Numbered from the stretch's first letter, positions 1 through 60,445 are shown. The stretch is DNA of 64,000 nucleotides from an uncultured archaeon (GCA_938045545.1 CALIBN010000002.1:100493-164492), one strand, 5' to 3'. Numbers and translations are program-made. The notes: generated by a model not told the origin, from the letters alone.

Positions 1-2617
1 AACCAATCCTGTATACGACGTTCGCTGAAACGCTGACCGGCTCAGCCACATGTAGCCCGTTCGCAACGAGGAACGCCTTAACCTGTTGAAGGTAGTCCGG
101 TTTCACCGTAATGTTTACGAGGAGTGTCGAAACATATGCTACCAAGGTTGATCTTGAAACCTCCACCCAGTCGTCCACGTTCCCAACCTGGTAGATACCT
201 ATCCTACTGGTTTGAGGATTATAAACCACAACCATGGTGACATAGGCCACTTGAGCGCTTATCGAGTAAAACGGGAGTATGAATACCGGTGTGTTGTTAA
301 CAAGCTGTACCATGAGGTTGCCCTCAACCCATGAGACTCCGTGCGTCTGGTGTAGAGTCAATATTTGTTGAACAGTAGGATGGTGAAGAATACTATCCAT
401 TATCGCGCTGAGCCTTGGAACCCTGCTTTGAAACAGGATGAATTCCTTACTGTCAGGAGTGAAAACATACGTGCCGACAATGTTCACAGAAGCCCCGGGG
501 TTCTGCTGATAATTCTCAACTATGCACAGGGCCACGTATCTTCCTTCCAACGAGACATATCTTATGTCGAAAACGCTTTGCGAATATATGTTTCCACTGG
601 AGTCTCGAGGGTAGTCCAGCATGCCTGTACTCCTATACCAGGAGTCGTAATCCGAGCTTGAAATTCTGTAAGTATTATAGATGTCAATTATGGTCCACAT
701 AAGGTTTTTAATATATCTTAGCTGTGGCTTAAGCCAAGACGGTATTGGCCTAACCCATGAAGGATATAGGGATTTAAGCGCGTTGATAACATAGTTGTCA
801 CTATCCAAGGATTCTTCAAACATGTAGCCTTGAATACTGCCGTCTGCAACGTTCACCAAGATTATGGAGAAAAGCCTTCTTAAGCAGCCTCCGTTTTCAA
901 CACCATACTTCTCCGTGGCAGCATACTCAGTGTAAACAGGCTTCTCAACGAAGGTTGAAAAAGCAAGGTAAAGATTCCCATCCGGGTCTACAACCGGGTA
1001 TGGTGCTGGCACACCCGTCCTAGGGTCGGTTTCAACGACTAGAAGTGGCACTTTTATCGCTGAAACCCTTTCATAAGCGTCTCTAGTGATCAAAGCGTTC
1101 AACGTATCCCCGTAGCCTCCTGAGGCTACGTCGAGCCTTCCTTTAAGAAGGAAGTAGGCTGCGCGAACCCATCCTGAGAAAACATAGTCCGGCGAGCCGG
1201 TGTAGTTCACAGTCCCAGCTTCCCTCCATTTGCCCGTGTTGACGAACACTATTTCCCTTTCTCTGAAAAGCCCTCCTAAACCATAGTATACAGGGGGAGC
1301 ATTAATCATCCCGAGGGCCTGGCTTAACGGAACAGTCCTCCCGGTTGTAGCGTCGAAAGCCAGGATAGCCTCGCTGTGAGTATATATGAATGATTCAGCA
1401 GTCTCAACATCGGTTGCCTCCACCATCACGGGGGCTGTGAAAACAACCCAGTATAAACGGCCATCTTTAAAATAAATCATTGAGGGCTCGCTTCCAGTAA
1501 TCCATGGTATTCCTCTTCTTGAAAGCTCGTAGCGGGTTCTTGAAGATATGAAATCATGGCTAGTCAGCCTGACCTTCTCAAGGTCGCTGAGGCTCCCCGG
1601 GGATTGTGTTGTTTCAGAAACCTCGTTTAAACCGTTGAGAAGCTTTACGAGCTCTATGTGCGGCTTAATTCTTGAGTTGAACTCATAGGAAACCTTGTTA
1701 GCATCCCATCCTCCTAGAGTCCTGTAGTATGCTTGCGGCAGTGCATACCCGAGCATGGCTATTACGACCGCTAGGACAAGCAGAATATTCTTCACCATAG
1801 CTGGCTTCTTAAAAGGCACTGTTTCCAGGAGGATTTGGAGAATCACTAAGATGACGGATATGGTTAGTGCAAGCCTGAATATTGGGCTCGTCACATCGTA
1901 AGTCAAGGAAGGATACCAGAACAGGAATAACCCTATGAAGACAGCTGAGACTATGAACCGGAGGAGGGAGAAGACTGTTCTCGTAAAATCTAACACTATT
2001 AAGTCGCCCTGAGGCCATGCCGCAGCCTTTTTCATCAGAATGAATATGCGCTGGAAACTATTTACAGCCAGGCTTATGAAAACTATGGCCGTGGAAAACA
2101 CGTAAAGCATTTTCATAAGCTGGATGAAGTCGAAAACCGGCATCATACCGTAGAGCTCCTCGCCGGAGAAAGAAAAGGGCCCAAAGTATATTTTCCCAAG
2201 CCAGCCGAGATAGGATTGTAGAAAACTGCCTGCCTTATTCAGCAGAAGGATTTGAACAGCTATTTGCGAGCCTACGGCTGAGAAGAATACGAATGCTAAC
2301 AGAATACTTGGAAACAGTATTAAAGCCGCAGTCTTAAACCTTCTTTTTAAGACTGAGTGCCAGAGGAACGGGTTTAACACGGCGATCCCTATCAGGACTC
2401 CGAACGCAGTGAAAAGACTGCCGTTTAAAAACATGATGTCGAGATAGCTCACCCCCGATTTTACACTATACATACTGTCGTAAACACTCATCGTGAAGAG
2501 CCATGCGGAGAAGCCAAGGTAGACTAGAAAAACAGCTAGCACTATCCCGGCAGCCTTCTTCAAAAGACTACGGTAATCCCTACCGCCTGAAACCTTTATT
2601 TCACCCATCACGTTCAT
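1..2617 (-). CDS. UPF0182 (COG1615)-like large membrane protein, 3'-truncated by the window edge
   Basis: Absent from the ORF track because it has no stop in the window. Manual translation from ATG 2617 (MNVMGEIKVSGG...) stays open to position 2. Multi-TM N-terminal half followed by a soluble domain with YTHS, VYYG, PYPVVD, LRY and GNLMVQLVNNTPVFILPFY segments typical of UPF0182. Confidence 0.7.
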   Translation of the reverse strand, partial: MNVMGEIKVSGGRDYRSLLKKAAGIVLAVFLVYLGFSAWLFTMSVYDSMYSVKSGVSYLDIMFLNGSLFTAFGVLIGIAVLNPFLWHSVLKRRFKTAALILFPSILLAFVFFSAVGSQIAVQILLLNKAGSFLQSYLGWLGKIYFGPFSFSGEELYGMMPVFDFIQLMKMLYVFSTAIVFISLAVNSFQRIFILMKKAAAWPQGDLIVLDFTRTVFSLLRFIVSAVFIGLFLFWYPSLTYDVTSPIFRLALTISVILVILQILLETVPFKKPAMVKNILLVLAVVIAMLGYALPQAYYRTLGGWDANKVSYEFNSRIKPHIELVKLLNGLNEVSETTQSPGSLSDLEKVRLTSHDFISSRTRYELSRRGIPWITGSEPSMIYFKDGRLYWVVFTAPVMVEATDVETAESFIYTHSEAILAFDATTGRTVPLSQALGMINAPPVYYGLGGLFREREIVFVNTGKWREAGTVNYTGSPDYVFSGWVRAAYFLLKGRLDVASGGYGDTLNALITRDAYERVSAIKVPLLVVETDPRTGVPAPYPVVDPDGNLYLAFSTFVEKPVYTEYAATEKYGVENGGCLRRLFSIILVNVADGSIQGYMFEESLDSDNYVINALKSLYPSWVRPIPSWLKPQLRYIKNLMWTIIDIYNTYRISSSDYDSWYRSTGMLDYPRDSSGNIYSQSVFDIRYVSLEGRYVALCIVENYQQNPGASVNIVGTYVFTPDSKEFILFQSRVPRLSAIMDSILHHPTVQQILTLHQTHGVSWVEGNLMVQLVNNTPVFILPFYSISAQVAYVTMVVVYNPQTSRIGIYQVGNVDDWVEVSRSTLVAYVSTLLVNITVKPDYLQQVKAFLVANGLHVAEPVSVSANVVYRIG

Positions 2618-2718
2618 CCCATCCAGAAAGCTTTTAAGCTTATCTTAGGGAAACTGTTTTGCGGAAGCACCTAAGGTTTTTAACCCTCCAACACGACAAT
2701 GACGCAGACTTGAGCAGG

Positions 2719-3708
2719 ATGCTTGGCAAGGTTCCTCCGAGAATACTTGAGAGAATAGTGTTTTCAAACCTCGGTGCCACCAGCAGGAGAGTCATTGCCG
2801 GCCCAGGCATAGGCGTCGACAACAGCATGATATCTTTAGATGGTGTTAAGATAATTGTTTCAAGCGATCCTGTTACGGGAGCCAAGGAGAACCTGGGTAG
2901 GATTGGCGTCGACGTTTCAACCAACGACGTGGCCCTAACAGGCGTGAGACCAGAGTTCCTCCTAGTCGTGCTTATCCTTCCTCCTGCAGCCAGCCATAAG
3001 GAAATCAGGAGGATAATGAGGCAGGCCAGCGATGAAGCTAAGAGGCTTGGGGTCGCTATAGTTGGGGGGCATACGGAGTATTCGAGCATCGTTGAAAAAC
3101 CTGTGTTCGTGGGTACGGCAATAGGGTGGACTAGACGTAGAAGAATCATCACTTCGAGCGGCGCTAAGTCTGGTGAAAACATTGTGATGGTTGGGGAGGC
3201 GGGTGTTGAAGGAACCTCCATACTTGCTTCCGACCTTTGGGGGAGGTTGGTGGAGAAAGGGGTTCAGCCATCGGTCTTAAAAAGGGCGAGAAGGCTTGTT
3301 GAAAACCTGAGCATAGTTGAGCCCGCACTGGTTTCCGCGAAGTATGTTTCAGCCATGCATGACCCTACGGAGGGCGGTGTGCTCGGCGGAATATTTGAAA
3401 TATGTGAAGCCTCTGGAAAAGGGTGCGTCGTAAACATGGAGTCAATACCGGTTAGGATGGAGACTATGATAATATGCGAAAAGCTCGGGTTAGACCCTCT
3501 TAGGCTCGTTAGCTCCGGAACCCTGCTGGCAACAGTCAGCGAATCTAAGACACCAGGGCTGTTGAGAAGGCTTCGGGAGAAAGGGTTTAAGGCACGCGTC
3601 ATAGGAAGGATGACGGGAAACAAGAGCGAGAGGATCGGGCTACTTGGCAGGAGGGAAATCAGGATAAGAAAGCTTCCTCAAGACGAACTGTGGAAAGCTA
3701 TCGGCTGA
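2719..3708 (+). CDS. AIR synthase/PurM-like family protein (HypE/ThiL-like paralog)
   Basis: GPGIGVD, SSDP, NDVA, GGHTE and MHDPTEGG motifs. Start placed at ATG 2719 (MLGKVPP); the ORF track starts at TTG 2659. Confidence 0.85.
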   Translation: MLGKVPPRILERIVFSNLGATSRRVIAGPGIGVDNSMISLDGVKIIVSSDPVTGAKENLGRIGVDVSTNDVALTGVRPEFLLVVLILPPAASHKEIRRIMRQASDEAKRLGVAIVGGHTEYSSIVEKPVFVGTAIGWTRRRRIITSSGAKSGENIVMVGEAGVEGTSILASDLWGRLVEKGVQPSVLKRARRLVENLSIVEPALVSAKYVSAMHDPTEGGVLGGIFEICEASGKGCVVNMESIPVRMETMIICEKLGLDPLRLVSSGTLLATVSESKTPGLLRRLREKGFKARVIGRMTGNKSERIGLLGRREIRIRKLPQDELWKAIG

Positions 3709-4426
3709 TTATCCTTGATTGCCCTATTCTCTTCGCAACCGCGTTGTAAAGCGGCACAGCCACCAGTGTCCCTATGAAGGTTTGAGCGAAGTTCGCAGGC
3801 ACCTCGAAGACTGCTCCCAACTGGTATAGGGAAAGCTCGTAGAGGAAGTATCCTAGAACCATTTCGAAGCCTCCTATGAAGCACGGCACTATTAGCGGCA
3901 GGTTCTCCCGGTAGACTCTCAGAATGAAGATTAGCGATGCCGCTAGAACGATGAGTATTGTGAAGAGAATAGGCTGATAGGCTACTGTAGCCGAGTATAT
4001 TGTGAGCAGCGATACTTCAGCCTCTCCTGTGAAAAGAAATATGACCAGTATGGTTCCGAGAATCACTGTTGGAACCGGGAGGAAGAGCATCAGGAGCCGA
4101 GTAGCCCGCGACTCCTTTCCAGCGAAAACCTCGTGGAGAAAGCCGGTTAGGAAGCCTTCAACACCTTTAACGATAAGGGTGGCGGGAGCATACACGGTAT
4201 AACCTAGGAACAGGTCGCTCAGCATTGATCCTAATCCGCCTGCGAGAAACCCTACGAGGGGGCCGAACAACAGGGCGGTTAGGAAGATCATGGAGTCCCC
4301 CAGGTTAAAGTAGCCCCTGGTGGCCGGGATATATATGGAGACGGATGCTGTCGCCACGAAGACTAGAGCGGTGGAAAGGGCTGCTGACGAGACAAGCCTA
4401 GCCTTCGAAACACTTAGGTTACGCAT
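3698..4426 (-). CDS. ECF transporter S component
   Basis: Multi-TM protein; GYFNLGD, FGPLVGFLAGGLGSMLSDL and TLIVKG motifs. Confidence 0.8.
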   Translation of the reverse strand: MRNLSVSKARLVSSAALSTALVFVATASVSIYIPATRGYFNLGDSMIFLTALLFGPLVGFLAGGLGSMLSDLFLGYTVYAPATLIVKGVEGFLTGFLHEVFAGKESRATRLLMLFLPVPTVILGTILVIFLFTGEAEVSLLTIYSATVAYQPILFTILIVLAASLIFILRVYRENLPLIVPCFIGGFEMVLGYFLYELSLYQLGAVFEVPANFAQTFIGTLVAVPLYNAVAKRIGQSRIISR

Positions 4427-4500
4427 AAGAAGGAGAATCCATTCGCGGAATAAAACGCTTACCTTATATTAAGGCTTATAGTAAGAGGACGCTGCTAATT

Positions 4501-5313
4501 TCAACTTTTCAAAACCAGTTTGAAAAGATAGCATGCGGAAAACAGCATGATCGAGACCAGGGCTATTGCGCCACTAGTCGGAATATCGTAGAGCAGTGAT
4601 ACTGTAATACCTCCTAATCCAGATATGGCCTCAACTGTGAAAGCCGCTAGCAGCATCATGTCTATGCGGCGGGCCAGCAGCCTTGAGACCGCTGCAGGTA
4701 TTACGAGAAGCGTGACGGAAAGCAGAATGCCCATGGTTCTCGCCACGACAGCGGCAGTTATCGCGGAAACAGCGAATAGCAGTGAGTCGTATAGTCCTGT
4801 TTTAAGGCCAAAAGATTCAGCGGTCTCCATGTCGAAGCAAATGTAGATAAACTCCCTGTAAAACATTATGGTGACAATGAGTGAAACGGTTGACGCAGCA
4901 GCCAGACTGAGCACATCCATTTCTGAAAGAAGCAGAAGGTCACTCACAAGATAACTGTCAACTAAAATTCTCCTCTCTATCGGCATGTAGCTTCTTATTA
5001 TCACGTAGAGCATCACGCTTACAGCTAGAGAAACGCTGAGCATCATGCCCAAGGCTTGCTGACTGCTCCTACCAACGCGGGAAACAAGTATGGATGTTGC
5101 CACGCAGAACAATATTGCAAATACAAACGGGTCTCCAGCTCCCGGCAGTAAAGCCTGGATTAAAACGCCTACTGCTGCACCCCCTAAGGCAGCGTGTGAA
5201 ACCTCAGGAGTAATGTAGAGGGCTCCTCTCAGAAGCATGATTACTGAAATCGGTGCTGAAAACGAGGCGAAAACAACTCCGACGATTGCTCTTAAGACAA
5301 ACGGGTCAAGCAT
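4501..5313 (-). CDS. Metal (Zn/Mn/Fe) ABC transporter permease, ZnuB-like
   Basis: SHAALGG, FDxETAxxxG and GILL...LVIPA motifs; start at MLDPF overlaps the ATPase stop. Confidence 0.85.
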   Translation of the reverse strand: MLDPFVLRAIVGVVFASFSAPISVIMLLRGALYITPEVSHAALGGAAVGVLIQALLPGAGDPFVFAILFCVATSILVSRVGRSSQQALGMMLSVSLAVSVMLYVIIRSYMPIERRILVDSYLVSDLLLLSEMDVLSLAAASTVSLIVTIMFYREFIYICFDMETAESFGLKTGLYDSLLFAVSAITAAVVARTMGILLSVTLLVIPAAVSRLLARRIDMMLLAAFTVEAISGLGGITVSLLYDIPTSGAIALVSIMLFSACYLFKLVLKS

Positions 5314-7590: not shown

Positions 7591-7792
7591 CGAGTTCCCT
7601 TAAGGAACCTACTTCCACTCACAAGCATAAACCACGACGCCCGATGGATCGCATGGGCTACGTCCTGAACTTCTTAATCTTGCCTCTTCGCCGCTCATGG
7701 TTTTAGAAGCATTCGGATTTTGAACTCGAGGCCGTTTCAAATTAAATAGGTAAAAATTTTCAAAAAGAGTAGATTGATTAAATCATTCCTTT

Positions 7793-9943
7793 TCAGACGA
7801 GAAAAAACTCCTCCTTCTCACCGAACTTCTTGTATTTAGCCAACATCTCCTCTTTTAAACTGGGTTTGATGGTTTGAAGAGCTTTTTCAAAGTCCTCCTT
7901 AGTCACCTTGTCAGCATCCCTCCTCAAAGCGTTTAAGCCAGCCTCCCTGCAGAGCGCCTCCAGGTCAGCCCCAGAGTAGCCTTCAGTCCTCTTAGCGATC
8001 TCCTCAAGACTAACTCCCTCCAACGGCATTCTCCTCGTATGGATTTTAAGTATCTGGAGCCTTGAAGCCTCATCCGGCGGCGGAACATACAGTACTACTT
8101 CAAACCTTCCCGGCCTCATTATCGCAGGGTCGAGAAGCTCAGGCCTGTTGGTAGCTCCTATTATAACAATCCTCTCAATTGGGGTGAGCCCATCCATCTC
8201 TGTCAGCAGCTGGCTTACAACCCTCTCCGTCACGCCGCTGTCAGCCATGCTCATGCCTCTCCTCGGAGCGACCGCGTCAACCTCATCCAGGAAGATTATT
8301 GAGGGCGAGGCGAGCCTGGCCTTCCTAAACACTTCCCTTATTGCTTTCTCAGACTCCCCAACCCATTTCGAGAAGATCTCTGGACCCTTAATGCTTATGA
8401 AGTTGGCCTCGCTCTCAGTCGCAACCGCCCTGGCGAGAAGAGTCTTCCCGCATCCCGGTGGACCGTAGAGAAGTATCGCTTTAGGAGGCGTTATACCTAG
8501 TTTTTCAAACTTCTCCGGCGTCTTTATTGGAAGCTCGACGGTCTCCCTGAGCCTTCTCTTAATCTCCTCAAGCCCTCCGACGTCGCTCCACCTGACCGTT
8601 GGAACCTCAACATACACTTCCCTCATCGCGGAAGGAGTTATTTCTTTAAACGCGTTCATGAAGTCCTCAGCCTTAACAACCATTTTCTCCAAGACAGACT
8701 GTGGAATCCTCTCATCCAGCTTTATCTCAGGCAAGTATCTTCTCAAAGCCTTCATCGCCGCCTCCCTGCACAGCGCAGCCAGGTCTGCACCAGTATAGCC
8801 GTGCGTTATTTCAGCCAGCTTCTTCAAGTCCACATCCTTGTCAAGCGGCATCGACCTGGTGTGGATCTGAAGTATTTCAAGCCTGCCCTGCTTATCGGGC
8901 ACTCCTATCTCTATCTCCCTGTCGAACCGCCCCGGCCTGCGTAAAGCAGGGTCAATCATGTTCGGAACATTCGTCGCGCCTATGACGATCACGTCGCCCC
9001 TAGCCTTCAAACCATCCATGAGCGCGAGAAGCTGTGCCACCACTCTTCTCTCAACCTCGCCGCCAACCTCCTCTCTCTTAGGCGCTATAGCGTCAATCTC
9101 ATCTATGAAGATTATGCTTGGAGCCTTCTCCTGAGCCTCCTGGAAAACCCTTCTAAGCCTTTCCTCAGACTCGCCGTAAAACTTGCTCATTATCTCAGGC
9201 CCGTTTATAGAAAGGAAGTTGGCGTCAGACTCGTTTGCAACAGCCTTAGCCAGGAGCGTTTTACCAGTGCCAGGCGGGCCGTGGAGCAGAACCCCCTTAG
9301 GCGGCTCTATGCCCAGCCTCTGGAAAAGCTCCGGGTGTCTCAGGGGAAGCTCAACCATCTCCCTTATTCGTTGAATCTCCTCGTGTAAACCGCCAATATC
9401 CTCGTAAGTAACCCTTGGAATAGCCAGCTTCTCAGCAGCCTCTTCGCTAACTATCTGCATCCTTGTGTCCGGAGTAACCTTCACGAAGCCCCTTGGCTTA
9501 ACCCGGACCACCGTGAGGCCGAGGGCTTGGCCGCCGAAGACAGGTACCGCAACTATGTCGCCCTCGGTGAGAGGAGTATCTATAAGCTTATCCCTAACAT
9601 AGTCTAAGAAGTCCTCGTCCACGCTGGATATTCGCGCACCCATTGGTGCTAATACGACTTCATTAGCGTTCTCAACCTTATCCACCTTCCTGATCTTTAC
9701 ATAATCCCCTATCGCAACCCCGGCGCTCTTCCTTATCAGGCCGTCCATCCTCGCTATTTTTCTATCCTCATCCTCAGCGTAGCCGGGCCAGACAACTGCT
9801 GAAGCAGACTTCCTGCCAAGAATCTCGACAACGTCTCCAGTCTCAGCCTTAAGCTGAGCCATCTCCTTCCTACCTATTCTAACTATCCTCCTGCCGACGT
9901 CCCTCGGACGTGCCTCAGCAACAACCAGTTGAACCTCGCTCAT
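7793..9943 (-). CDS. cdc48: CDC48/VCP (VAT) AAA+ ATPase
   Basis: N-domain plus two AAA modules ([13 protein letters not shown]; [13 protein letters not shown]), RPGRF arginine fingers, KFYGE and KWVGE pore loops. Confidence 0.97.
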
Positions 9944-10020
9944 AGTTTTCAAGAAAGAGTTTTACCACTCAGATTTAAGCTTTCAACAAACCTGTTCGCA
10001 TGGCCAGAATTAAAAAACTC

Positions 10021-55120: not shown

Positions 55121-56104
55121 TTGGTCTGGAAAAGAAAAGTCTTGAAAGCGGGCTCAAGCTCACTCCTAATAACGCTTCCAAAAAGCTGGGTTAAGCAGAG
55201 CAAGATAGACAAAGGCGCGACCCTAACCATGGTTAGCAACAAGGACGGATCTCTAACGTTAATACCAGAGGGAGGAGGGAGGCTCGTGGAGGAGGTTGCA
55301 AAAATAGACCTTTCCAGTAAGGAGTTGAAGCCGCAGCACGTCCTGCTCGGAAGCTATTTGCTCGGCTACAACACGATAATCATTAGAAGCGAGGAGGAGT
55401 TTTCAACGGCCGAAATATCGGAAGTACGTAAGACGGTTAGGAGACTGCCCGGGGCAGAGATATCCGAGGAGACTTCAAGCCAGATCGAGGTTAGGGTTCT
55501 GCTCGACCCGGAGATGATTACTCCGGAGAAACTTGTAAGAAGGCAGAGTGCTCTTGCCGCAAGCATGATGTCCGATTGTGTTAAAGCACTGGTGAGGATG
55601 GATAGGGAGCTTGCGGAGAGAGTTATCGAGAGGGATGAGGAGGTTGACAGACAGTACTTCATACTCGTAAGGGTGATCAGGTCTGCTTTAAGAAACCCAG
55701 AGCTTCCGGCTAAGATGGGGATGGACTTCCTAAACCTGATGGACCTCAGAATGCTGGTGAAATATGTCGAGGACTCCGCGGACCAGTGTGTCCAAATATC
55801 CCGGGAGGTTGCGAAGATGCACGGCAGGGTTAAAAGGATAAGCCTAGCCGGGTTAAGCAGCATAGGTGAAACACTGAGCGATATGCATACTAAAGCGGTA
55901 GGGCTTTTCAGCGTTTTTAACGCAAGCGTTATGAACGAGATAATGGGGAAGCATGCTGAGGTTGAGGAGAAGCTTCTTAGCCTAGAGGAGAAACAGGATT
56001 ACAGGCCATACGCCACCAGCCTGGTTAAAGTCTTCAACAGCCTTGTGAAAATACTTGAAAACATCAAGGATATTGTGGAGCTTGTTTCAATAAAGGCGTT
56101 TTAA
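55121..56104 (+). CDS. Phosphate uptake regulator (AbrB N-domain plus PhoU domains)
   Basis: RKVLKAGSSSLLITLPKSWV, YLLGY, ERDEEVDRQYF and EDSAD motifs. Confidence 0.9.
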   Translation: MVWKRKVLKAGSSSLLITLPKSWVKQSKIDKGATLTMVSNKDGSLTLIPEGGGRLVEEVAKIDLSSKELKPQHVLLGSYLLGYNTIIIRSEEEFSTAEISEVRKTVRRLPGAEISEETSSQIEVRVLLDPEMITPEKLVRRQSALAASMMSDCVKALVRMDRELAERVIERDEEVDRQYFILVRVIRSALRNPELPAKMGMDFLNLMDLRMLVKYVEDSADQCVQISREVAKMHGRVKRISLAGLSSIGETLSDMHTKAVGLFSVFNASVMNEIMGKHAEVEEKLLSLEEKQDYRPYATSLVKVFNSLVKILENIKDIVELVSIKAF

Positions 56105-58863
56105 GCGCTAAGCTTCTCCAACAGCCGCCTATTCCGAGGCTCACTGTTCAAACGCAGCAGCAACTCTTCCCTAGAGCTAACCCCTACCAGCGATTTAACA
56201 GCAGCCTCTAAAAGACTTGAAACAGGCTCCACAACAATCCCTTTAGACTCTAAGAGCTCAACTATCTTAAGGCTCTTCATAGACTCGTAATTGAAAACGG
56301 GGACTAGCAGCTTCTTCGCATACTTGTCAGCCAACGCGGCATCTATCTTACCCATTCCCCTGTGATCAAGACCTCCAACCGGCCAGACCTCACCCTTAGC
56401 CGTTATAGCGCCCGTCATTATCACCGTCGGATCCGCCTCAATACCTGTGAAGGCAGAAATCATCGCCACGCCTATTGCCAGACCTGCTGATGGGCCGGAA
56501 ACAGGAGGATAGGAGAGGCCTGGGCGGAGCTGAAGCTTCTCCATGCCCTTCGCCGGCGTGACTAGCTCCACGAAAACATCGTGATTCTTAAACCTCCACC
56601 CGGAGATGCTGTTGACATATATGAAAGCATCTTCAGCACTAGCCTGAATGCTCTCTCCATACTCGCTTCCAACAACCTTCACAACACCTTTCCCCCTCGG
56701 GTTGGTAATAACCTCTACTACGCTCACGAACCCGCTCTGCTCGCCAGCAGCGCCTATGGCGACGAGACCATAGGTTTTACCGACCTCTGGGCTTTCAACC
56801 CTCACACTCCTATCGATCATCGTGCGAGCCTCGCTAACAGCCTCCTCCTCCGAAAGGGTTTCCAAAGCCTCTTGGAAGTGAATAGGCCGAAGCGGATAGT
56901 TTGAAGCGGAGACAAGCCTGAGGCTTTCCAGGAAGCCTTCTGAAGACTGTTCTACTCCAAGTATTCTGGAAAGCCTCTCCAGATCCTTAGCGTAGATCCT
57001 TCTTATTTCTTCAACCGGTCGGCCCTCGTCAATTGTTTTAACAAGCTGCCTTGCAGCATCCAGCTCCTTAACCCTGAGCCTGTTAGCCTCGTTAATCACG
57101 TCGGCAATCCTACGGGGGCTTAAAGCCTTCTTTCTAAGTATTTCCAGCACGTTGTCCACGGTGGCTTCAGGACTAAGGACATCCAGATACTTTTTCAAAT
57201 GGATGCTTATGATCTCCCTCCTCTCCTCGTCGTTCCTAGGATAGTTGAATTCGAATACGCGCGTAAACCTTTCCAGCAGAGCCCTGTCGAGAACGTCAAG
57301 CCTATTCGTGCTGGCTATAACCACCACGCCTGAGAGAGGTATGAAGCCATCCAGCTCGGTTAAAAGCTGGCTTGTAACCCTGTCTAGGACTGGGTCGTGG
57401 GTTCCACGTCCCGGGGCGACGGAATCTATCTCGTCGAAGAAGACTATGGCTGGAGAATTTCTCCTAGCGTCTTCGAAAATATCCCTTATCGTTTTCTCAG
57501 GATCCCCGTACATCCCCTGGATTATTGAGGGCCCGTTGACGAGGTAGAACCAGACATTGTTCTCACCGGCTATGGCCCTTGCTAGAAGAGTCTTCCCGGT
57601 TCCCGGTGGGCCGTGGAAAAGAAAGCCTTTAGGCGGAATATACCTGGCCTTGCTCGCCAAATCAGGGTTCAACGATAAAGAAATCTCCTTAATAATCTCC
57701 TCCCTCACGCCCTTAAGCCCACCGACATCCCCGTAACGCTCCTTAGGCCTAAGCTTAACCACAGACTTTTTAGCGGCCTCCGTCCTAGTGCTTACAGAGT
57801 AGGCCTTAACTTTTGAAGCGGCCTCCCTGAAATCGTTCAGCGTGACGAGCTCGCCAGGGTTAACCTGGCTCTCGGCTTCACCCCCGTGGAGAAGCCTGCT
57901 GATAAGCTTCTTCTGAAGCGGGGCAGCCTTGTTGCTGACAACCATTTGGAAAGCGTTAACAATGTCGGCGGGGGTTATGGCCTGTGTTTCAAAAGACCTT
58001 ACACTGTCCTCTATCACCGTGAGAATGTCTTGGGGAGGAAGCCTAACACCGTGAACCTTACACTGTTTCTCAACTATTTTAAGCAGCATCTGTCTAGACA
58101 TGTTTTCATCAAGATCTATTGTCCCAGCAACCCCCCTTCTGCGGAGAGTGTCTATCAGCGACTCATACTCGGTTGTTGAAACCATTACGACAGTACGGTA
58201 ATCCTTCCTTTGAAGCTCGTCGAACTTCTCGAGGAGAACTGTTTGAACCCGCGTCTCCTCCATCCCAACTTCAGTTGTTGAGCTGAACTTTTTAGCAAAA
58301 GCCTGAAACTCGTCTATCAAAACTATGCTTGGATTGTAGAACACGTTGTTGAAGAACTCGCTGAGCCTCTGCGCACTCTGACCGTACCACATGGAGTAAA
58401 CCTGTTCAGGCTTAAGCCTAGCTAGGTTCACGAGCAGACCGTACTCTAAGCCTTTCTCAAAACCCTCCCTCTGCGCGACCTCGGCGAAGAAGGTTTTACC
58501 CGAGCCGCTTGAACCCTTTACGACGAACAGCTTAGGCGGGGGTGCTGCTTTAAAAGTCCTCCTTATCTCGGGATCTCTCAAAACATGGTAGTGGATGCTT
58601 ACTAGAACCTTGAAAAGCTCTTCATCCCTGCCCACAAGATCCTCCCGAGTAACCCTTGGAAACATCGGGTTTTTCCGGATCTTCCTAGCCTTTTTCTCCA
58701 CTATTTTCTTCCTCTTCTCCGGGGGGAGGCGGAGAAACTTCCACATGCGGTATTTCCAAGAGAAAAGGTTGAGTAATGGGGAGAACAATAGTCTTAGAAA
58801 CGGTTTCTTATACCACCATTCCTCCTCGAACTCCCTGTCCTCTTCGAACTCGCTCGAAAACAT
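56101..58863 (-). CDS. Tandem AAA+ (CDC48-type D1-D2) ATPase fused to a C-terminal Lon (S16) protease domain
   Basis: D1 GSSGSGKT/VLIDE/SMWYG; D2 [21 protein letters not shown]...RF; protease SIQASA..A, VSGPSAG, MTGAI...GEVWPVGG...K. Confidence 0.85.
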   Translation of the reverse strand: MFSSEFEEDREFEEEWWYKKPFLRLLFSPLLNLFSWKYRMWKFLRLPPEKRKKIVEKKARKIRKNPMFPRVTREDLVGRDEELFKVLVSIHYHVLRDPEIRRTFKAAPPPKLFVVKGSSGSGKTFFAEVAQREGFEKGLEYGLLVNLARLKPEQVYSMWYGQSAQRLSEFFNNVFYNPSIVLIDEFQAFAKKFSSTTEVGMEETRVQTVLLEKFDELQRKDYRTVVMVSTTEYESLIDTLRRRGVAGTIDLDENMSRQMLLKIVEKQCKVHGVRLPPQDILTVIEDSVRSFETQAITPADIVNAFQMVVSNKAAPLQKKLISRLLHGGEAESQVNPGELVTLNDFREAASKVKAYSVSTRTEAAKKSVVKLRPKERYGDVGGLKGVREEIIKEISLSLNPDLASKARYIPPKGFLFHGPPGTGKTLLARAIAGENNVWFYLVNGPSIIQGMYGDPEKTIRDIFEDARRNSPAIVFFDEIDSVAPGRGTHDPVLDRVTSQLLTELDGFIPLSGVVVIASTNRLDVLDRALLERFTRVFEFNYPRNDEERREIISIHLKKYLDVLSPEATVDNVLEILRKKALSPRRIADVINEANRLRVKELDAARQLVKTIDEGRPVEEIRRIYAKDLERLSRILGVEQSSEGFLESLRLVSASNYPLRPIHFQEALETLSEEEAVSEARTMIDRSVRVESPEVGKTYGLVAIGAAGEQSGFVSVVEVITNPRGKGVVKVVGSEYGESIQASAEDAFIYVNSISGWRFKNHDVFVELVTPAKGMEKLQLRPGLSYPPVSGPSAGLAIGVAMISAFTGIEADPTVIMTGAITAKGEVWPVGGLDHRGMGKIDAALADKYAKKLLVPVFNYESMKSLKIVELLESKGIVVEPVSSLLEAAVKSLVGVSSREELLLRLNSEPRNRRLLEKLSA

Positions 58864-58968
58864 TCCCTGAAGATGTTATGACACACCTAGGTATAAAGCT
58901 TTATACACGGTTATTAAACTTTGGAAACACGGAAAGAATAAAAGCCGCGTTTCCAAGTCTTCAGGGGA

Positions 58969-59685
58969 TTGGGGAAAAGCGCGTTGACACTGCTAACCTG
59001 CCTACTGCTGGCATGTGCGCTAGCCTCAGTACCGGGAAACAGCGAGACGGTGGAATACGATTTCCCCAAGGTTAACATTCTGGAGGGAGACCTCTTCGTA
59101 GTGACGTTGAGCCCCCCGGTGGAGAACATTCAAGTATACGTTAAAGGGTCTGAAAAGAAAGACTTTTCCCTACTCGTATTGACGAATAGCAGCCTCGCCA
59201 TACCTGTTTTAACAGGACGCGTTTCAATCGTGCAGCTGATACCGGAGTCTACAATGACGAACCTTACGGTGACGTTCGATTCGAACACGACTGTGAAAAT
59301 GCTCTACGCCATTTTAACTAACAACTACACGTATTATAGGCGGGTTTCTTCAGAATACTATACTTTTTCCAACGGGATTCTAGTGATCCTTCAGCCGCAA
59401 TTAACGATCCCCCGGGGCACTTCGAAAATAACTTTCATTCTAAACATGGTTAGCGTGAAAAGCTCCGGCGGGTTTCTCATCGAGCTGCCCCCGTTAGCTA
59501 CGATACTCCCCTTTGCAGCAGCAGTAGTAATACTTGCCTACTTGAACGCTTACGCCATCGTCGACTCCTACTATTTGTCTAAGCGGGAAGAATTGAGCAG
59601 AAGCAGGAAGCTGGGCGTAGCGCTTCTCATAGTTTTAAGCGCGCTTGCAATATACTGGTTGTTTAACAACTTCGTCAAATACTGA
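58969..59685 (+). CDS. Hypothetical exported/membrane protein (signal peptide, beta-rich domain, two C-terminal TMs)
   Basis: Hydropathy pattern; NxS/T sequons. Confidence 0.65.
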   Translation: MGKSALTLLTCLLLACALASVPGNSETVEYDFPKVNILEGDLFVVTLSPPVENIQVYVKGSEKKDFSLLVLTNSSLAIPVLTGRVSIVQLIPESTMTNLTVTFDSNTTVKMLYAILTNNYTYYRRVSSEYYTFSNGILVILQPQLTIPRGTSKITFILNMVSVKSSGGFLIELPPLATILPFAAAVVILAYLNAYAIVDSYYLSKREELSRSRKLGVALLIVLSALAIYWLFNNFVKY

Positions 59686-60445
59686 AGCAAACATCCTCAG
59701 GATAAACCTGACACTTCTCACAGTAGTACCTGGATTCCTCGGGTTTCCAAACAAGTTTTGAACCGCAGTTTGGACAGAGGGGCGGTGTGCCCAACGGGGG
59801 GGCCTTCCCCCTTCTAGCCCCCCCGGTCCCGGTCTCAACAGGCTTCTCTAAAGCCTGCGGCCGAGTAGGCTTAGCCGGAGCAGAGGGAGGCTTAAGGGTT
59901 AGAACAAGATGGGTTAAAACACCTGACAACACAGCTACAGCAATAATGTTGACCACCGTCCCAGCGATAATCACCAGCGAAAGCGTTGCGACAGCATCGT
60001 CCACCACGACGGTTCTTAACGATAGACCATATAGGAGTGGCTTTAAATCCCTGTGTAGAAAGTATACGCCTAGGACGGATACCGCGGTTATGGAGAAAAC
60101 AGACGCCTTAACAGCATCGTACACTGAGCTGGACAGGATGCTTGCGACAATGCTTATAATAAGGATGATTGCTAGACAGACTATTAGCCAAACACCGGAG
60201 TTGAAAAACTGGGTGAAAACGCTCACAAGACCCCTGCCTTGGGTTGCGACCGCCTCAACGCCGAAGCCGGAGACAGACATTCCTAGAGCATAAACCCAGG
60301 GACCATTATTAAGGCCGTATAGGCTTATGCTTTCACCATCGTACCGGATGCTGCTTGAAGGAAGCATGGCTAATATTGAGTCTACCAACAGTACTGGCGA
60401 GAGCGAGAGAAGCGTCAACACCACCAGCAGTAGAACCAGCCTCAA
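59675..60445 (-). CDS. Membrane protein with Pro-rich linker and C-terminal Zn ribbon
   Basis: About 4 TM segments; CPNCGSKLVW....RYYCEKC. Confidence 0.7.
   Translation of the reverse strand: MRLVLLLVVLTLLSLSPVLLVDSILAMLPSSSIRYDGESISLYGLNNGPWVYALGMSVSGFGVEAVATQGRGLVSVFTQFFNSGVWLIVCLAIILIISIVASILSSSVYDAVKASVFSITAVSVLGVYFLHRDLKPLLYGLSLRTVVVDDAVATLSLVIIAGTVVNIIAVAVLSGVLTHLVLTLKPPSAPAKPTRPQALEKPVETGTGGARRGKAPPLGTPPLCPNCGSKLVWKPEESRYYCEKCQVYPEDVCFSI

Follow-up and report, generated by a model that had tools for sequence, protein, structure and literature searches.

A predicted membrane-tethered archaeal protease that combines two classical AAA modules with a Lon proteolytic domain

A 64,000-nucleotide stretch of the genome of an uncultured archaeon (GCA_938045545.1, CALIBN010000002.1:100493-164492; hereafter, the window, by which we always mean the entire stretch) encodes a 920-amino-acid protein, denoted P0001, in which two tandem modules of the AAA family, D1 and D2, are followed by a proteolytic domain of the Lon family. 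We propose that P0001 and its homologs, hereafter the AAA-Lon family, are probably membrane-tethered, ATP-dependent proteases that act independently of the proteasome and represent an undescribed architecture. The domain composition, the conservation of the catalytic motifs, the linkage to a gene for a small membrane protein and the fusion of such a protein to the enzyme in Asgard archaea are directly observed. The parts of the gene, in window coordinates, are as follows:

56101..58863, minus strand: open reading frame of the tandem-AAA Lon protease P0001 (ATG start, 920 amino acids, stop codon included)
58564..58863, minus strand: N-terminal region, residues 1-100 (acidic stretch, motif WW..(P)..LR..F.PL..L.SW.YR.W.F, then a basic helix)
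57844..58563, minus strand: D1 AAA module, residues ~101-340 (PF00004, E 1.9e-16)
56884..57843, minus strand: D2 AAA module with a long helical lid and linker, residues 341-660 (PF00004, E 1.1e-36)
56149..56883, minus strand: Lon (S16) proteolytic domain, residues 661-905, including the TPAKGME insertion (Lon_C, E 2.3e-13)
56488..56490, minus strand: codon of the predicted catalytic Ser792 (G-P-S-A-G, Pro before Ser; from the alignment with Archaeoglobus fulgidus LonB, AfLonB, and from conservation)
56347..56349, minus strand: codon of the predicted catalytic Lys839 (Ser + 47 positions; a 4-residue insertion precedes the Lys)

The original prediction, which was made from the nucleotide sequence alone, described a single 920-residue open reading frame at 56101-58863; this frame is indeed present, on the minus strand, with the opposite, plus strand over the same interval rich in stops, and its translation contains all the motifs that had been quoted. 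The domain scan proposed at that time returned the anticipated two AAA modules plus Lon_C (Pfam, NCBIfam): AAA (PF00004) matches over two stretches with an E-value of 3.4e-54, and Lon_C (PF05362) matches at residues 690-887 with a score of 50.6 bits (cut-off 21.1). D1 contains the Walker A motif GSSGSGKT (117-124), the pore loop SMWYG (157-161), the Walker B motif VLIDE (181-185, with D184-E185) and the arginines of RRRG (241-244, including R242/R243). In D2, the motif DVGG (379-382) is followed by Walker A GPPGTGKT (418-425), the pore loop GMYG (450-453, with Y452-G453), FFDEID (475-480, with the Walker B pair D477-E478), STNR (518-521, with the sensor N520) and ALLERFT (528-534, with R532). 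The Lon domain carries VSGPSAG (788-794), MTGAIT (816-821) and VGGLDHRGMGK (829-839). In an alignment of 62 homologs (A1), both Walker A lysines, both Walker B D-E pairs, W159-Y160-G161, Y452-G453, R242/R243, N520, R532, Ser792 and Lys839 are invariant, and across 107 full-length sequences the same catalytic and pore-loop residues, along with those of the N-terminal Trp-rich motif, are invariant or nearly so. The AlphaFold2 (AF2) model of P0001 has a predicted local distance difference test score (pLDDT) of 79.1, and its best matches in the PDB, identified with Foldseek, are the double-ring ATPases p97, CDC48, VAT, NVL and Rix7 (E-values down to 2e-27).

The Lon domain can be aligned with the solved protease domain of AfLonB (1z0w family; E ~6e-11), and in this alignment Ser792 and Lys839 occupy the positions of the catalytic dyad; with the Lon_C match and the dyad thus aligned, P0001 belongs, as judged from its sequence, to the broad Lon family (MEROPS S16). 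The lysine had been predicted to lie 47 positions after the serine through a 4-residue insertion, and the alignment agrees, with a gap of four residues (HRGM) in AfLonB, relative to P0001, directly ahead of the catalytic lysine. Thus, 46 residues separate Ser792 from Lys839, compared to the separation of exactly 42 residues that a recent Lon classification gives for LonA and LonB (PMC9569914). According to the same classification, the residue ahead of the catalytic serine is Pro in LonA and Asp in LonB (PMC9569914); in P0001, this residue is Pro791, that is, the A-type context, and the Lon domain scores 57.9 bits with the LonB model TIGR00764 and 48.6 bits with the LonA model TIGR00763. Among 27 aligned representatives, with identity down to 29%, the serine is retained in all 27, the lysine in 26 and the D-E pair of the D1 Walker B motif in 23; the exception to the dyad is P0199, in which Arg replaces Lys and the Ser motif is degenerate. 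Such conservation of Ser and Lys across 29-96% identity is hard to account for without catalysis. The insertion ahead of the lysine is a hallmark of the family, with P0258 the only one of the 27 representatives to lack it. Another family-specific insertion, ~14 residues long, is located ahead of the catalytic serine and is absent from AfLonB; its motif TPAKGME (residues 769-775, window 56539-56559) is invariant or nearly so in the 62 close homologs, with P770, A771, K772, G773 and E775 invariant.

The most similar hidden Markov model (HMM) for P0001 as a whole is CDC48 (TIGR01243), with 228 bits against a cut-off of 802.65. Among the NCBIfam models, D1 alone is most similar to CDC48, over the D1 portion of that profile (positions 168-336; 53 bits); D2 alone matches CDC48 with 174.9 bits (the D2 part of the profile), PAN with 165 and FtsH with 161, and reaches 19.9 bits with the Lon ATPase model TIGR00763, over the P-loop only, with no stretch passing singly. 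The Pfam scan detected neither CDC48_N nor CDC48_2 in residues 1-340, and no AAA_lid_3 for D2 at E <= 0.01. In the subgroup to which D2 of P0001 belongs, the second region of homology is two residues shorter than usual (E-RFTR vs RPGRFDR). We constructed a maximum-likelihood tree of 65 AAA modules (250 columns, LG+G4, support values from the SH-like approximate likelihood ratio test, SH-aLRT), rooted on two LonA-like modules; this was a short search with limited sampling (Vps4 and katanin were left out) and with D1 on a long branch. The D1 modules of the family form a single clade (support 99), the D2 modules lie on one side of a branch with a support of 58, and a cluster of CDC48 D1, CDC48 D2, PAN and FtsH (support 96) excludes both; the family modules are split from the LonA-like ones with a support of 100. 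The subtrees of D1 and D2 are congruent, with the same internal groupings, which indicates that the tandem is ancestral to the AAA-Lon family. Taken together, the ranking of the NCBIfam matches, the invariant R242/R243 and R532, and the tree place both modules, at the level of sequence, in the classical AAA clade, in a lineage separate from CDC48 D1 and D2 despite the CDC48-like layout. The earlier expectation that these modules would not group with those of LonB and the HCLR clade is in line with the low TIGR00763 score of D2 and with the position of the family apart from the two LonA-like modules. The designation of the protein as CDC48-type holds for the double-ring layout and the best HMM match and fails in other respects, namely, the absence of CDC48_N, the score far below the CDC48 cut-off and the position outside the CDC48 clades.

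The region that precedes D1 is modeled with a pLDDT of 80-91. W16, W17, F27, L31, S35, W36 and R39 are invariant in the 62 sequences, the motif is retained in subfamilies with 29-39% identity, and in the Asgard proteins it comes immediately after the last membrane helix. As originally noted, the N-terminus is acidic and then rich in Trp and Arg, but it is not a classical amphipathic helix: the helical hydrophobic moment of residues 21-38 is just 0.28. No transmembrane segment was detected in P0001, the best 19-residue Kyte-Doolittle window (0.59) being under the threshold. We propose that this region is a juxtamembrane, partner-binding element.

The candidate partner is encoded directly upstream of the AAA-Lon gene:

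58969..59685, plus strand: partner gene P0348 (238 amino acids, TTG start), the upstream membrane-protein neighbor, c1 type
58864..58968, no strand: divergent intergenic region of 105 bp between the AAA-Lon and partner genes

The neighborhood was surveyed in the window and in 20 loci that were hand-picked across families from the table of Lon_C matches before any neighbor was known, all of them from the 42 other carrier genomes of the window's phylum. In all 21 loci, a small membrane protein is encoded immediately upstream of the AAA-Lon gene. These proteins are of two types, c1 in 13 loci (229-270 amino acids) and c2 in 8 (124-408 amino acids as called), which are alike in position and topology. 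In 18 of the 21 loci, the two genes share a strand and are spaced by -53 to +127 nucleotides, with each of the eight c2 genes, as called, running into the start of the AAA-Lon gene; the three divergent pairs are those of the window and of two further genomes from the same genus. The 105-bp spacer of the window contains a palindromic TATA-like element, TATAAAGCTTTATA, at 58892-58905, which, judging from its sequence, could be a bidirectional archaeal promoter.

The AF2 model of P0348 (pLDDT 85.1) consists of an N-terminal helix, a beta-sandwich (residues 28-161) and a helical hairpin (176-206 and 211-236); with hydrophobic segments centered near residues 13, 184 and 224, the predicted layout is an N-terminal hydrophobic helix, an extracytoplasmic beta-sandwich of ~135 residues and a transmembrane hairpin. 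The short cytosolic loop of the hairpin reads DSYYLSKREELSRSRK, and Y201, K205 and S210 of this loop are nearly invariant in c1 proteins. P0348 matches no Pfam family, and no fold in the PDB at E <= 0.001 (833 weak matches). Prediction of the complex of enzyme residues 1-340 with the c1 partner gave scores of 0.31, 0.28 and 0.27, against a mark of 0.32. The c2 partners of two loci, L112 (G069; 7591-7965, minus strand) and L113 (G037; 4591-4995, plus strand), are 124-134 amino acids long as called and consist of a four-helix module with an acidic tail, without an extracytoplasmic domain; in this they match the module carried by the Asgard fusions.

In six of the seven Asgard carriers, the enzyme has ~120 extra N-terminal residues with four predicted membrane helices; four of these fusions are complete (1010-1012 amino acids) and two are cut by contig ends. 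An HMM of the C-terminal four-helix module of c2 matches the Asgard extension with 73.4, 62.9, 38, 37, 36.7 and 34.3 bits. The set of 281 neighboring ORFs includes several other multi-span proteins, yet no sequences in it apart from the c2 partners and the four fusions that are complete reach E <0.1; for the two fusions cut by contig ends, the scores come from another search. The c2 proteins and the Asgard extension share the motifs RW..DS.AL..RY.F and YG.AK...Y(E/D)L.DEE, and in the fusions the acidic tail of the partner, ..Y(E/D)L.DEE, continues directly into the enzyme motif ..PWW..H..LR... In the seventh Asgard carrier, the two are split: the membrane protein, of 309 residues, is encoded upstream, overlaps the enzyme start and weakly matches the c1 profile (E 6e-4). 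The occurrence of two proteins as separate genes in one lineage and as a fusion in another is classical evidence that they act as a unit. Here, the fusion argues for physical association and membrane anchoring, and it would position the N-terminus of the enzyme on the cytoplasmic side of the membrane. This argument is one step weaker for the window because the partner there is c1 rather than c2. A possible membrane association had been suggested in the original prediction; it gains support from the conserved neighboring membrane protein and its fusion with the Asgard enzymes, and not from an amphipathic N-terminal helix.

The oligomeric state, proteolytic activity, membrane location and substrate class that we infer combine into the following scheme. 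By analogy with all type II AAA proteins and Lon proteases of solved structure, a hexamer of three stacked rings, D1, D2 and the Lon chamber, would assemble from six subunits. The Trp/Arg-rich N-terminal motif would be located at the cytoplasmic face of the membrane, held there by the dedicated small membrane protein, and the substrates most plausibly would be misfolded or unassembled membrane and membrane-proximal proteins. The aromatic pore loops M-W-Y-G of D1 and M-Y-G of D2 would grip a substrate, ATP hydrolysis would drive it through both rings and the Ser792-Lys839 dyad would cleave it in the distal chamber, such that the 20S proteasome would not be needed. The predicted machine thus would join an FtsH-like layout to Lon-like chemistry and a CDC48-like motor, resembling in its layout FtsH in bacteria and LonB in euryarchaea.

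Several observations weigh against this scheme. In the enzyme, the loop before the catalytic serine (residues 771-784) is modeled with a pLDDT below 50, the Ser-Lys spacing exceeds that of every characterized Lon by four residues, D2 lacks the first Arg of the classical RPGRFD motif, and P0001 itself has neither a membrane span nor a strong amphipathic helix. With respect to the partner, the two genes are divergent, not co-directional, in the window's genus, so that co-expression is not assured; c1 and c2 show no detectable homology (hhalign probability ~1%, E 0.056, 22 columns); and the evidence from fusion extends to the c1 partner of the window through position and topology alone.

Other interpretations differ in what they make of the membrane protein, the Lon domain or the gene pair as a whole. 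P0001 could be an active ATP-dependent protease whose neighboring membrane protein does not serve passively as an anchor but is either degraded by the enzyme in a regulated manner or acts as a sensor of signals. A cue would then be detected by the extracytoplasmic beta-sandwich and relayed through proteolysis of the partner itself or of some factor bound to it, in a manner comparable to the regulated proteolysis of anti-sigma factors. Most of the partners do have an extracytoplasmic domain of ~135-150 residues that belongs to no known family and exceeds what an anchor would need, and the c1 loop with Y201, K205 and S210 and the acidic tail of c2 could serve as degrons. However, the membrane module of six out of the seven Asgard carriers is built into the enzyme chain itself and lacks an ectodomain, and the two Thermoproteota partners of 124-134 residues have no ectodomain either; the conserved core therefore appears to be the membrane helices, as expected of an anchor. 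We regard this alternative, the main one, as unlikely; a sensor role in some lineages is possible and is compatible with much of the scheme of a membrane-tethered protease.

Still less likely, in our view, is a Lon domain that serves as a structural ring devoid of protease activity, as in RadA/Sms, in which case P0001 would be solely an unfoldase or extractase that passes its substrates on to a different protease. In favor of such a ring are the atypical Ser-Lys spacing and P0199, with its Arg and degenerate Ser motif; set against this are the presence of Ser792 and Lys839 in 62 of the 62 close homologs, their retention in 27 and 26 of the 27 divergent ones, and the G-P-S-A-G and G-K motifs maintained around them. 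An anti-phage or conflict module, with an AAA-protease pair as in Iet or a Lon-like protein as in BrxL, is a very improbable identity for the gene pair. The best PADLOC matches of P0001 are IetA models (140.8 bits) and TRIP13, and the IteA anti-phage ATPase of NCBIfam scores 121.5 bits; however, CDC48, PAN and FtsH all score higher, and none of these matches extends beyond the AAA part, the PADLOC match that reaches farthest stopping at residue 613. The gene is present as a single copy, in 15 of the 16 other genomes of the genus, among housekeeping neighbors, which is not the pattern of a patchy island.

The window comes from a metagenome-type assembly in 51 contigs, yet an assembly chimera or a decaying cdc48-lon fusion can practically be dismissed given the more than 100 clusters from separate sources, the spanning contig, the intact frame and the conservation of all motifs. 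A 10,947-nucleotide contig from an independent study covers 56000-59800 in one piece, with 76 substitutions, 4 gaps and no joints, and a contig of a further run bridges the boundary between D2 and Lon (record 3, 56339-57108); the indels listed relative to related contigs are all confined to 58863-58968, the intergenic spacer and its edges, with none inside the ORF. The join, which the original prediction had taken as genuine, recurs in many independent assemblies. Related or near-identical copies of 56000-59800 are also listed for runs X7 and X10-X20, labeled hot springs metagenome or marine metagenome; the alignment to this interval covered X2, X4, X7 and X13, and the entries with small shares give no firm indication of habitat. 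Among the listed runs with copies of this interval, none is recorded as RNA, and one labeled metatranscriptomic is flagged as probably DNA.

In a search of 5.8 billion clustered proteins, 118 of the best 120 homologs listed have a precomputed Lon_C domain, and the other two are partial proteins of 655 and 598 amino acids. The database names of the homologs are 'AAA family ATPase', 'transitional endoplasmic reticulum ATPase' and 'SpoVK/Ycf46/Vps4 family', and the organism labels are Thermoproteota, Bathyarchaeota/Bathyarchaeia, Brockarchaeota, Marsarchaeota and Nitrososphaerota. The sequences are therefore already plentiful in the databases as 'AAA family ATPase', and the novelty lies in the recognition of the architecture. 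A broader search with residues 641-920 against 1.84 billion representatives, followed by a scan of the matches with our own domain HMMs, yielded the same order (N-terminal motif or D1, D2, Lon) in 21 of the 57 listed matches of at least 700 amino acids, with 29-39% identity to P0001.

The distribution and neighbor surveys that had been recommended gave carriers in two archaeal phylum samples, along with the conserved membrane-protein neighbor described above. Carriers were detected with a profile of divergent members (A2; E <= 1e-150) that gives one match in each of five known carriers and does not match CDC48:

window's phylum: carriers 43/201 genomes, 18/94 genera, single copy each
phylum of the Promethearchaeum record, which we take to be Asgard: carriers 7/101
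phylum of the Methanomassiliicoccales record: carriers 0/101
phylum of the Woesearchaeota record: carriers 0/101
phylum of the Methanoperedens record: carriers 0/101

Among bacteria, none of the five chosen genomes and none of the 301 in one phylum sample, in which only three candidates per genome were scored, is a carrier; P0141, named as a Candidatus Nealsonbacteria metagenome-assembled genome, and one Atlas cluster (1140 amino acids, AAA + Lon_C) that is labeled bacterial, with the phylum known for just two members, are unconfirmed bacterial leads. A separate search of the genome contigs with a Walker A pattern gave at least 80 loci of the CDC48/FtsH type, with no AAA-Lon family among the matches listed; these loci were reused as outgroups.

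Some homologs are considerably longer than P0001. P0113 and P0154 (1261 amino acids) contain an intein of ~345 residues (PF14528, PF14890) in D2, directly after Walker A, and our D2 HMM matches both of its flanks; the usual sites of inteins are highly conserved positions of important proteins. P0274 and P0275 (1120-1124 amino acids, ~200 residues longer) have an additional precomputed Pfam match, PF04450, and P0133 (1120 amino acids) extends ~230 residues beyond the Lon domain.

P0001 shares with LonB a C-terminal Lon Ser-Lys domain (TIGR00764, 57.9 bits), an archaeal origin, an ATPase and a protease in one chain and a predicted action at the membrane. According to the Lon classification, LonB has a single AAA+ module of the Lon/HCLR type, a membrane anchor inserted between the Walker motifs and Asp before Ser (PMC9569914); P0001 differs in its two classical modules, the absence of an inserted anchor and of the LonB lid, Pro before Ser and the four extra residues, and the predicted anchor of AAA-Lon is a separate or an N-terminally fused protein. 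The likeness to FtsH, m-AAA and i-AAA consists in the classical AAA module (161 bits on D2), an N-terminal tether and the predicted order of membrane, ATPase and protease chamber, an order that the Asgard form has within one chain; FtsH, however, has a single AAA ring and the zinc metalloprotease M41, whereas P0001 has two modules, predicted to form two rings, and a Ser-Lys protease, with M41 absent. CDC48, VAT and p97 share with P0001 two tandem classical AAA modules and provide the best whole-protein HMM and the best structural matches, but P0001 has a protease domain at the C-terminus where CDC48 has its proteasome-docking tail, and it lacks CDC48_N and CDC48_2, both of which are present in the true CDC48 encoded in the window.

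The likeness to LonA lies in a soluble chain that holds ATPase and protease together and in the G-P-S-A-G motif, with the Pro before Ser that the classification assigns to LonA (PMC9569914). LonA has a LON N-domain and one HCLR module; TIGR00763 matches only the protease part of P0001, and the LON N-domain is not among the best 25 of the 32 Pfam families matched by P0001. LonC likewise has a Lon protease domain behind an AAA-like module, but this is one degenerate module (AAA_32) accompanied by the LonC helical domain, whereas the modules of P0001 retain complete ATPase motifs; LonC is reported to have no ATPase activity (PMC13069640). For BrxL and the Lon-like proteins of defense systems, there is no PADLOC match over the Lon part of P0001.

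No description of a tandem of classical AAA modules joined to Lon_C was found in the openly searchable literature. In the available parts of two surveys, the table of Lon architectures from 2008 has no AAA-AAA-Lon_C entry (PMC2605481), and the classification from 2022 comprises subfamilies A, B and C and a proposed BA, with no mention of 'two AAA' or 'tandem' (PMC9569914). The earlier view that the protein fits none of LonA/LonB, BrxL, FtsH or CDC48 and had not been described agrees with these results.

The genome of the window (2.03 Mb, 51 contigs, 92% complete) has the AAA-Lon gene as its sole Lon_C; neither the LonB lid (PF20436) nor the M41 domain of FtsH (PF01434) was found in it. It also contains three proteasome subunit genes, an ATPase of the size of PAN (399 amino acids) and two CDC48 genes. 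One of these is the canonical cdc48 that the original prediction had pointed out in the window (7793..9952, minus strand, 719 amino acids), with CDC48_N, CDC48_2, two AAA and AAA_lid_3; its product has a Vps4_C-like end, and the second gene of CDC48 size is on contig 8 of the genome.

In the sample of the window's phylum, genes of the LonB type are present in 7 of the 201 genomes and those of the LonC type in 11, the latter coexisting with AAA-Lon in 3 of the 43 carriers. None of the seven genomes with LonB-type genes carries AAA-Lon, a complementarity that is uninformative because chance alone would give only ~1.5 overlaps and relatedness makes the genomes non-independent. The Asgard carrier G230 also has a LonB-sized Lon_C frame of 687 amino acids; the Asgard frames of ~640-690 amino acids are candidate LonB proteins. 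Other Lon_C proteins of Thermoproteota are ~560-690 amino acids long, with Lon_C near the N-terminus (50-176 in a 632-residue protein), and one of 843 residues has Lon_C at 259-378; the loci of these uncharacterized Lon architectures are L017 (G083; 96-1994, minus strand) and L020 (G062; 2441-4972, plus strand), and Pfam detects no further family in either.

On the downstream side, a convergent gene (55121-56104, plus strand, 327 amino acids) overlaps the stop of the AAA-Lon gene by four bases and encodes a protein with AbrB/MazE-type DNA-binding and PhoU domains; its position is conserved only within the genus. The other neighbors in the window are ordinary housekeeping genes, and the same eight neighbors are present in three genomes of the genus.

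In textbooks, and in the reviews and Lon classifications consulted, the ATP-dependent proteases are a small, closed set made up of the proteasome and its ATPases, HslUV, the Clp systems, FtsH and Lon. A widespread family with a double classical-AAA motor coupled to a Lon chamber and a dedicated membrane tether would add a new member to this set. Tentatively, and with somewhat less than even confidence, we go further and suggest that AAA-Lon may represent a new class of energy-dependent proteases, a two-component (in TACK) or single-chain (in Asgard) machine in which a transmembrane subunit docks a double-ring unfoldase that feeds its own Lon chamber. If so, archaea that lack both FtsH and LonB would have in it the missing equivalent of these proteases for the quality control of membrane proteins. 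Because it would extract and degrade substrates at a membrane with a Cdc48-like double ring, it would also be a prokaryotic, one-machine analog of eukaryotic endoplasmic reticulum-associated degradation; the partners that bear an ectodomain would add extracellular sensing.

The split form of TACK and the fused form of Asgard would offer a natural experiment on the coupling of an unfoldase to the membrane, and the altered Ser-Lys spacing, together with the TPAKGME insertion, a test of the variation that a Lon active site tolerates. The deep position of the family outside CDC48, PAN and FtsH bears on the early history of the classical AAA proteins. For the organisms themselves, the proposed protease would address the question of how many Thermoproteota remove bad membrane proteins, in a phylum where LonB is found in just 7 of the 201 sampled genomes and where the genome of the window has neither FtsH nor LonB.

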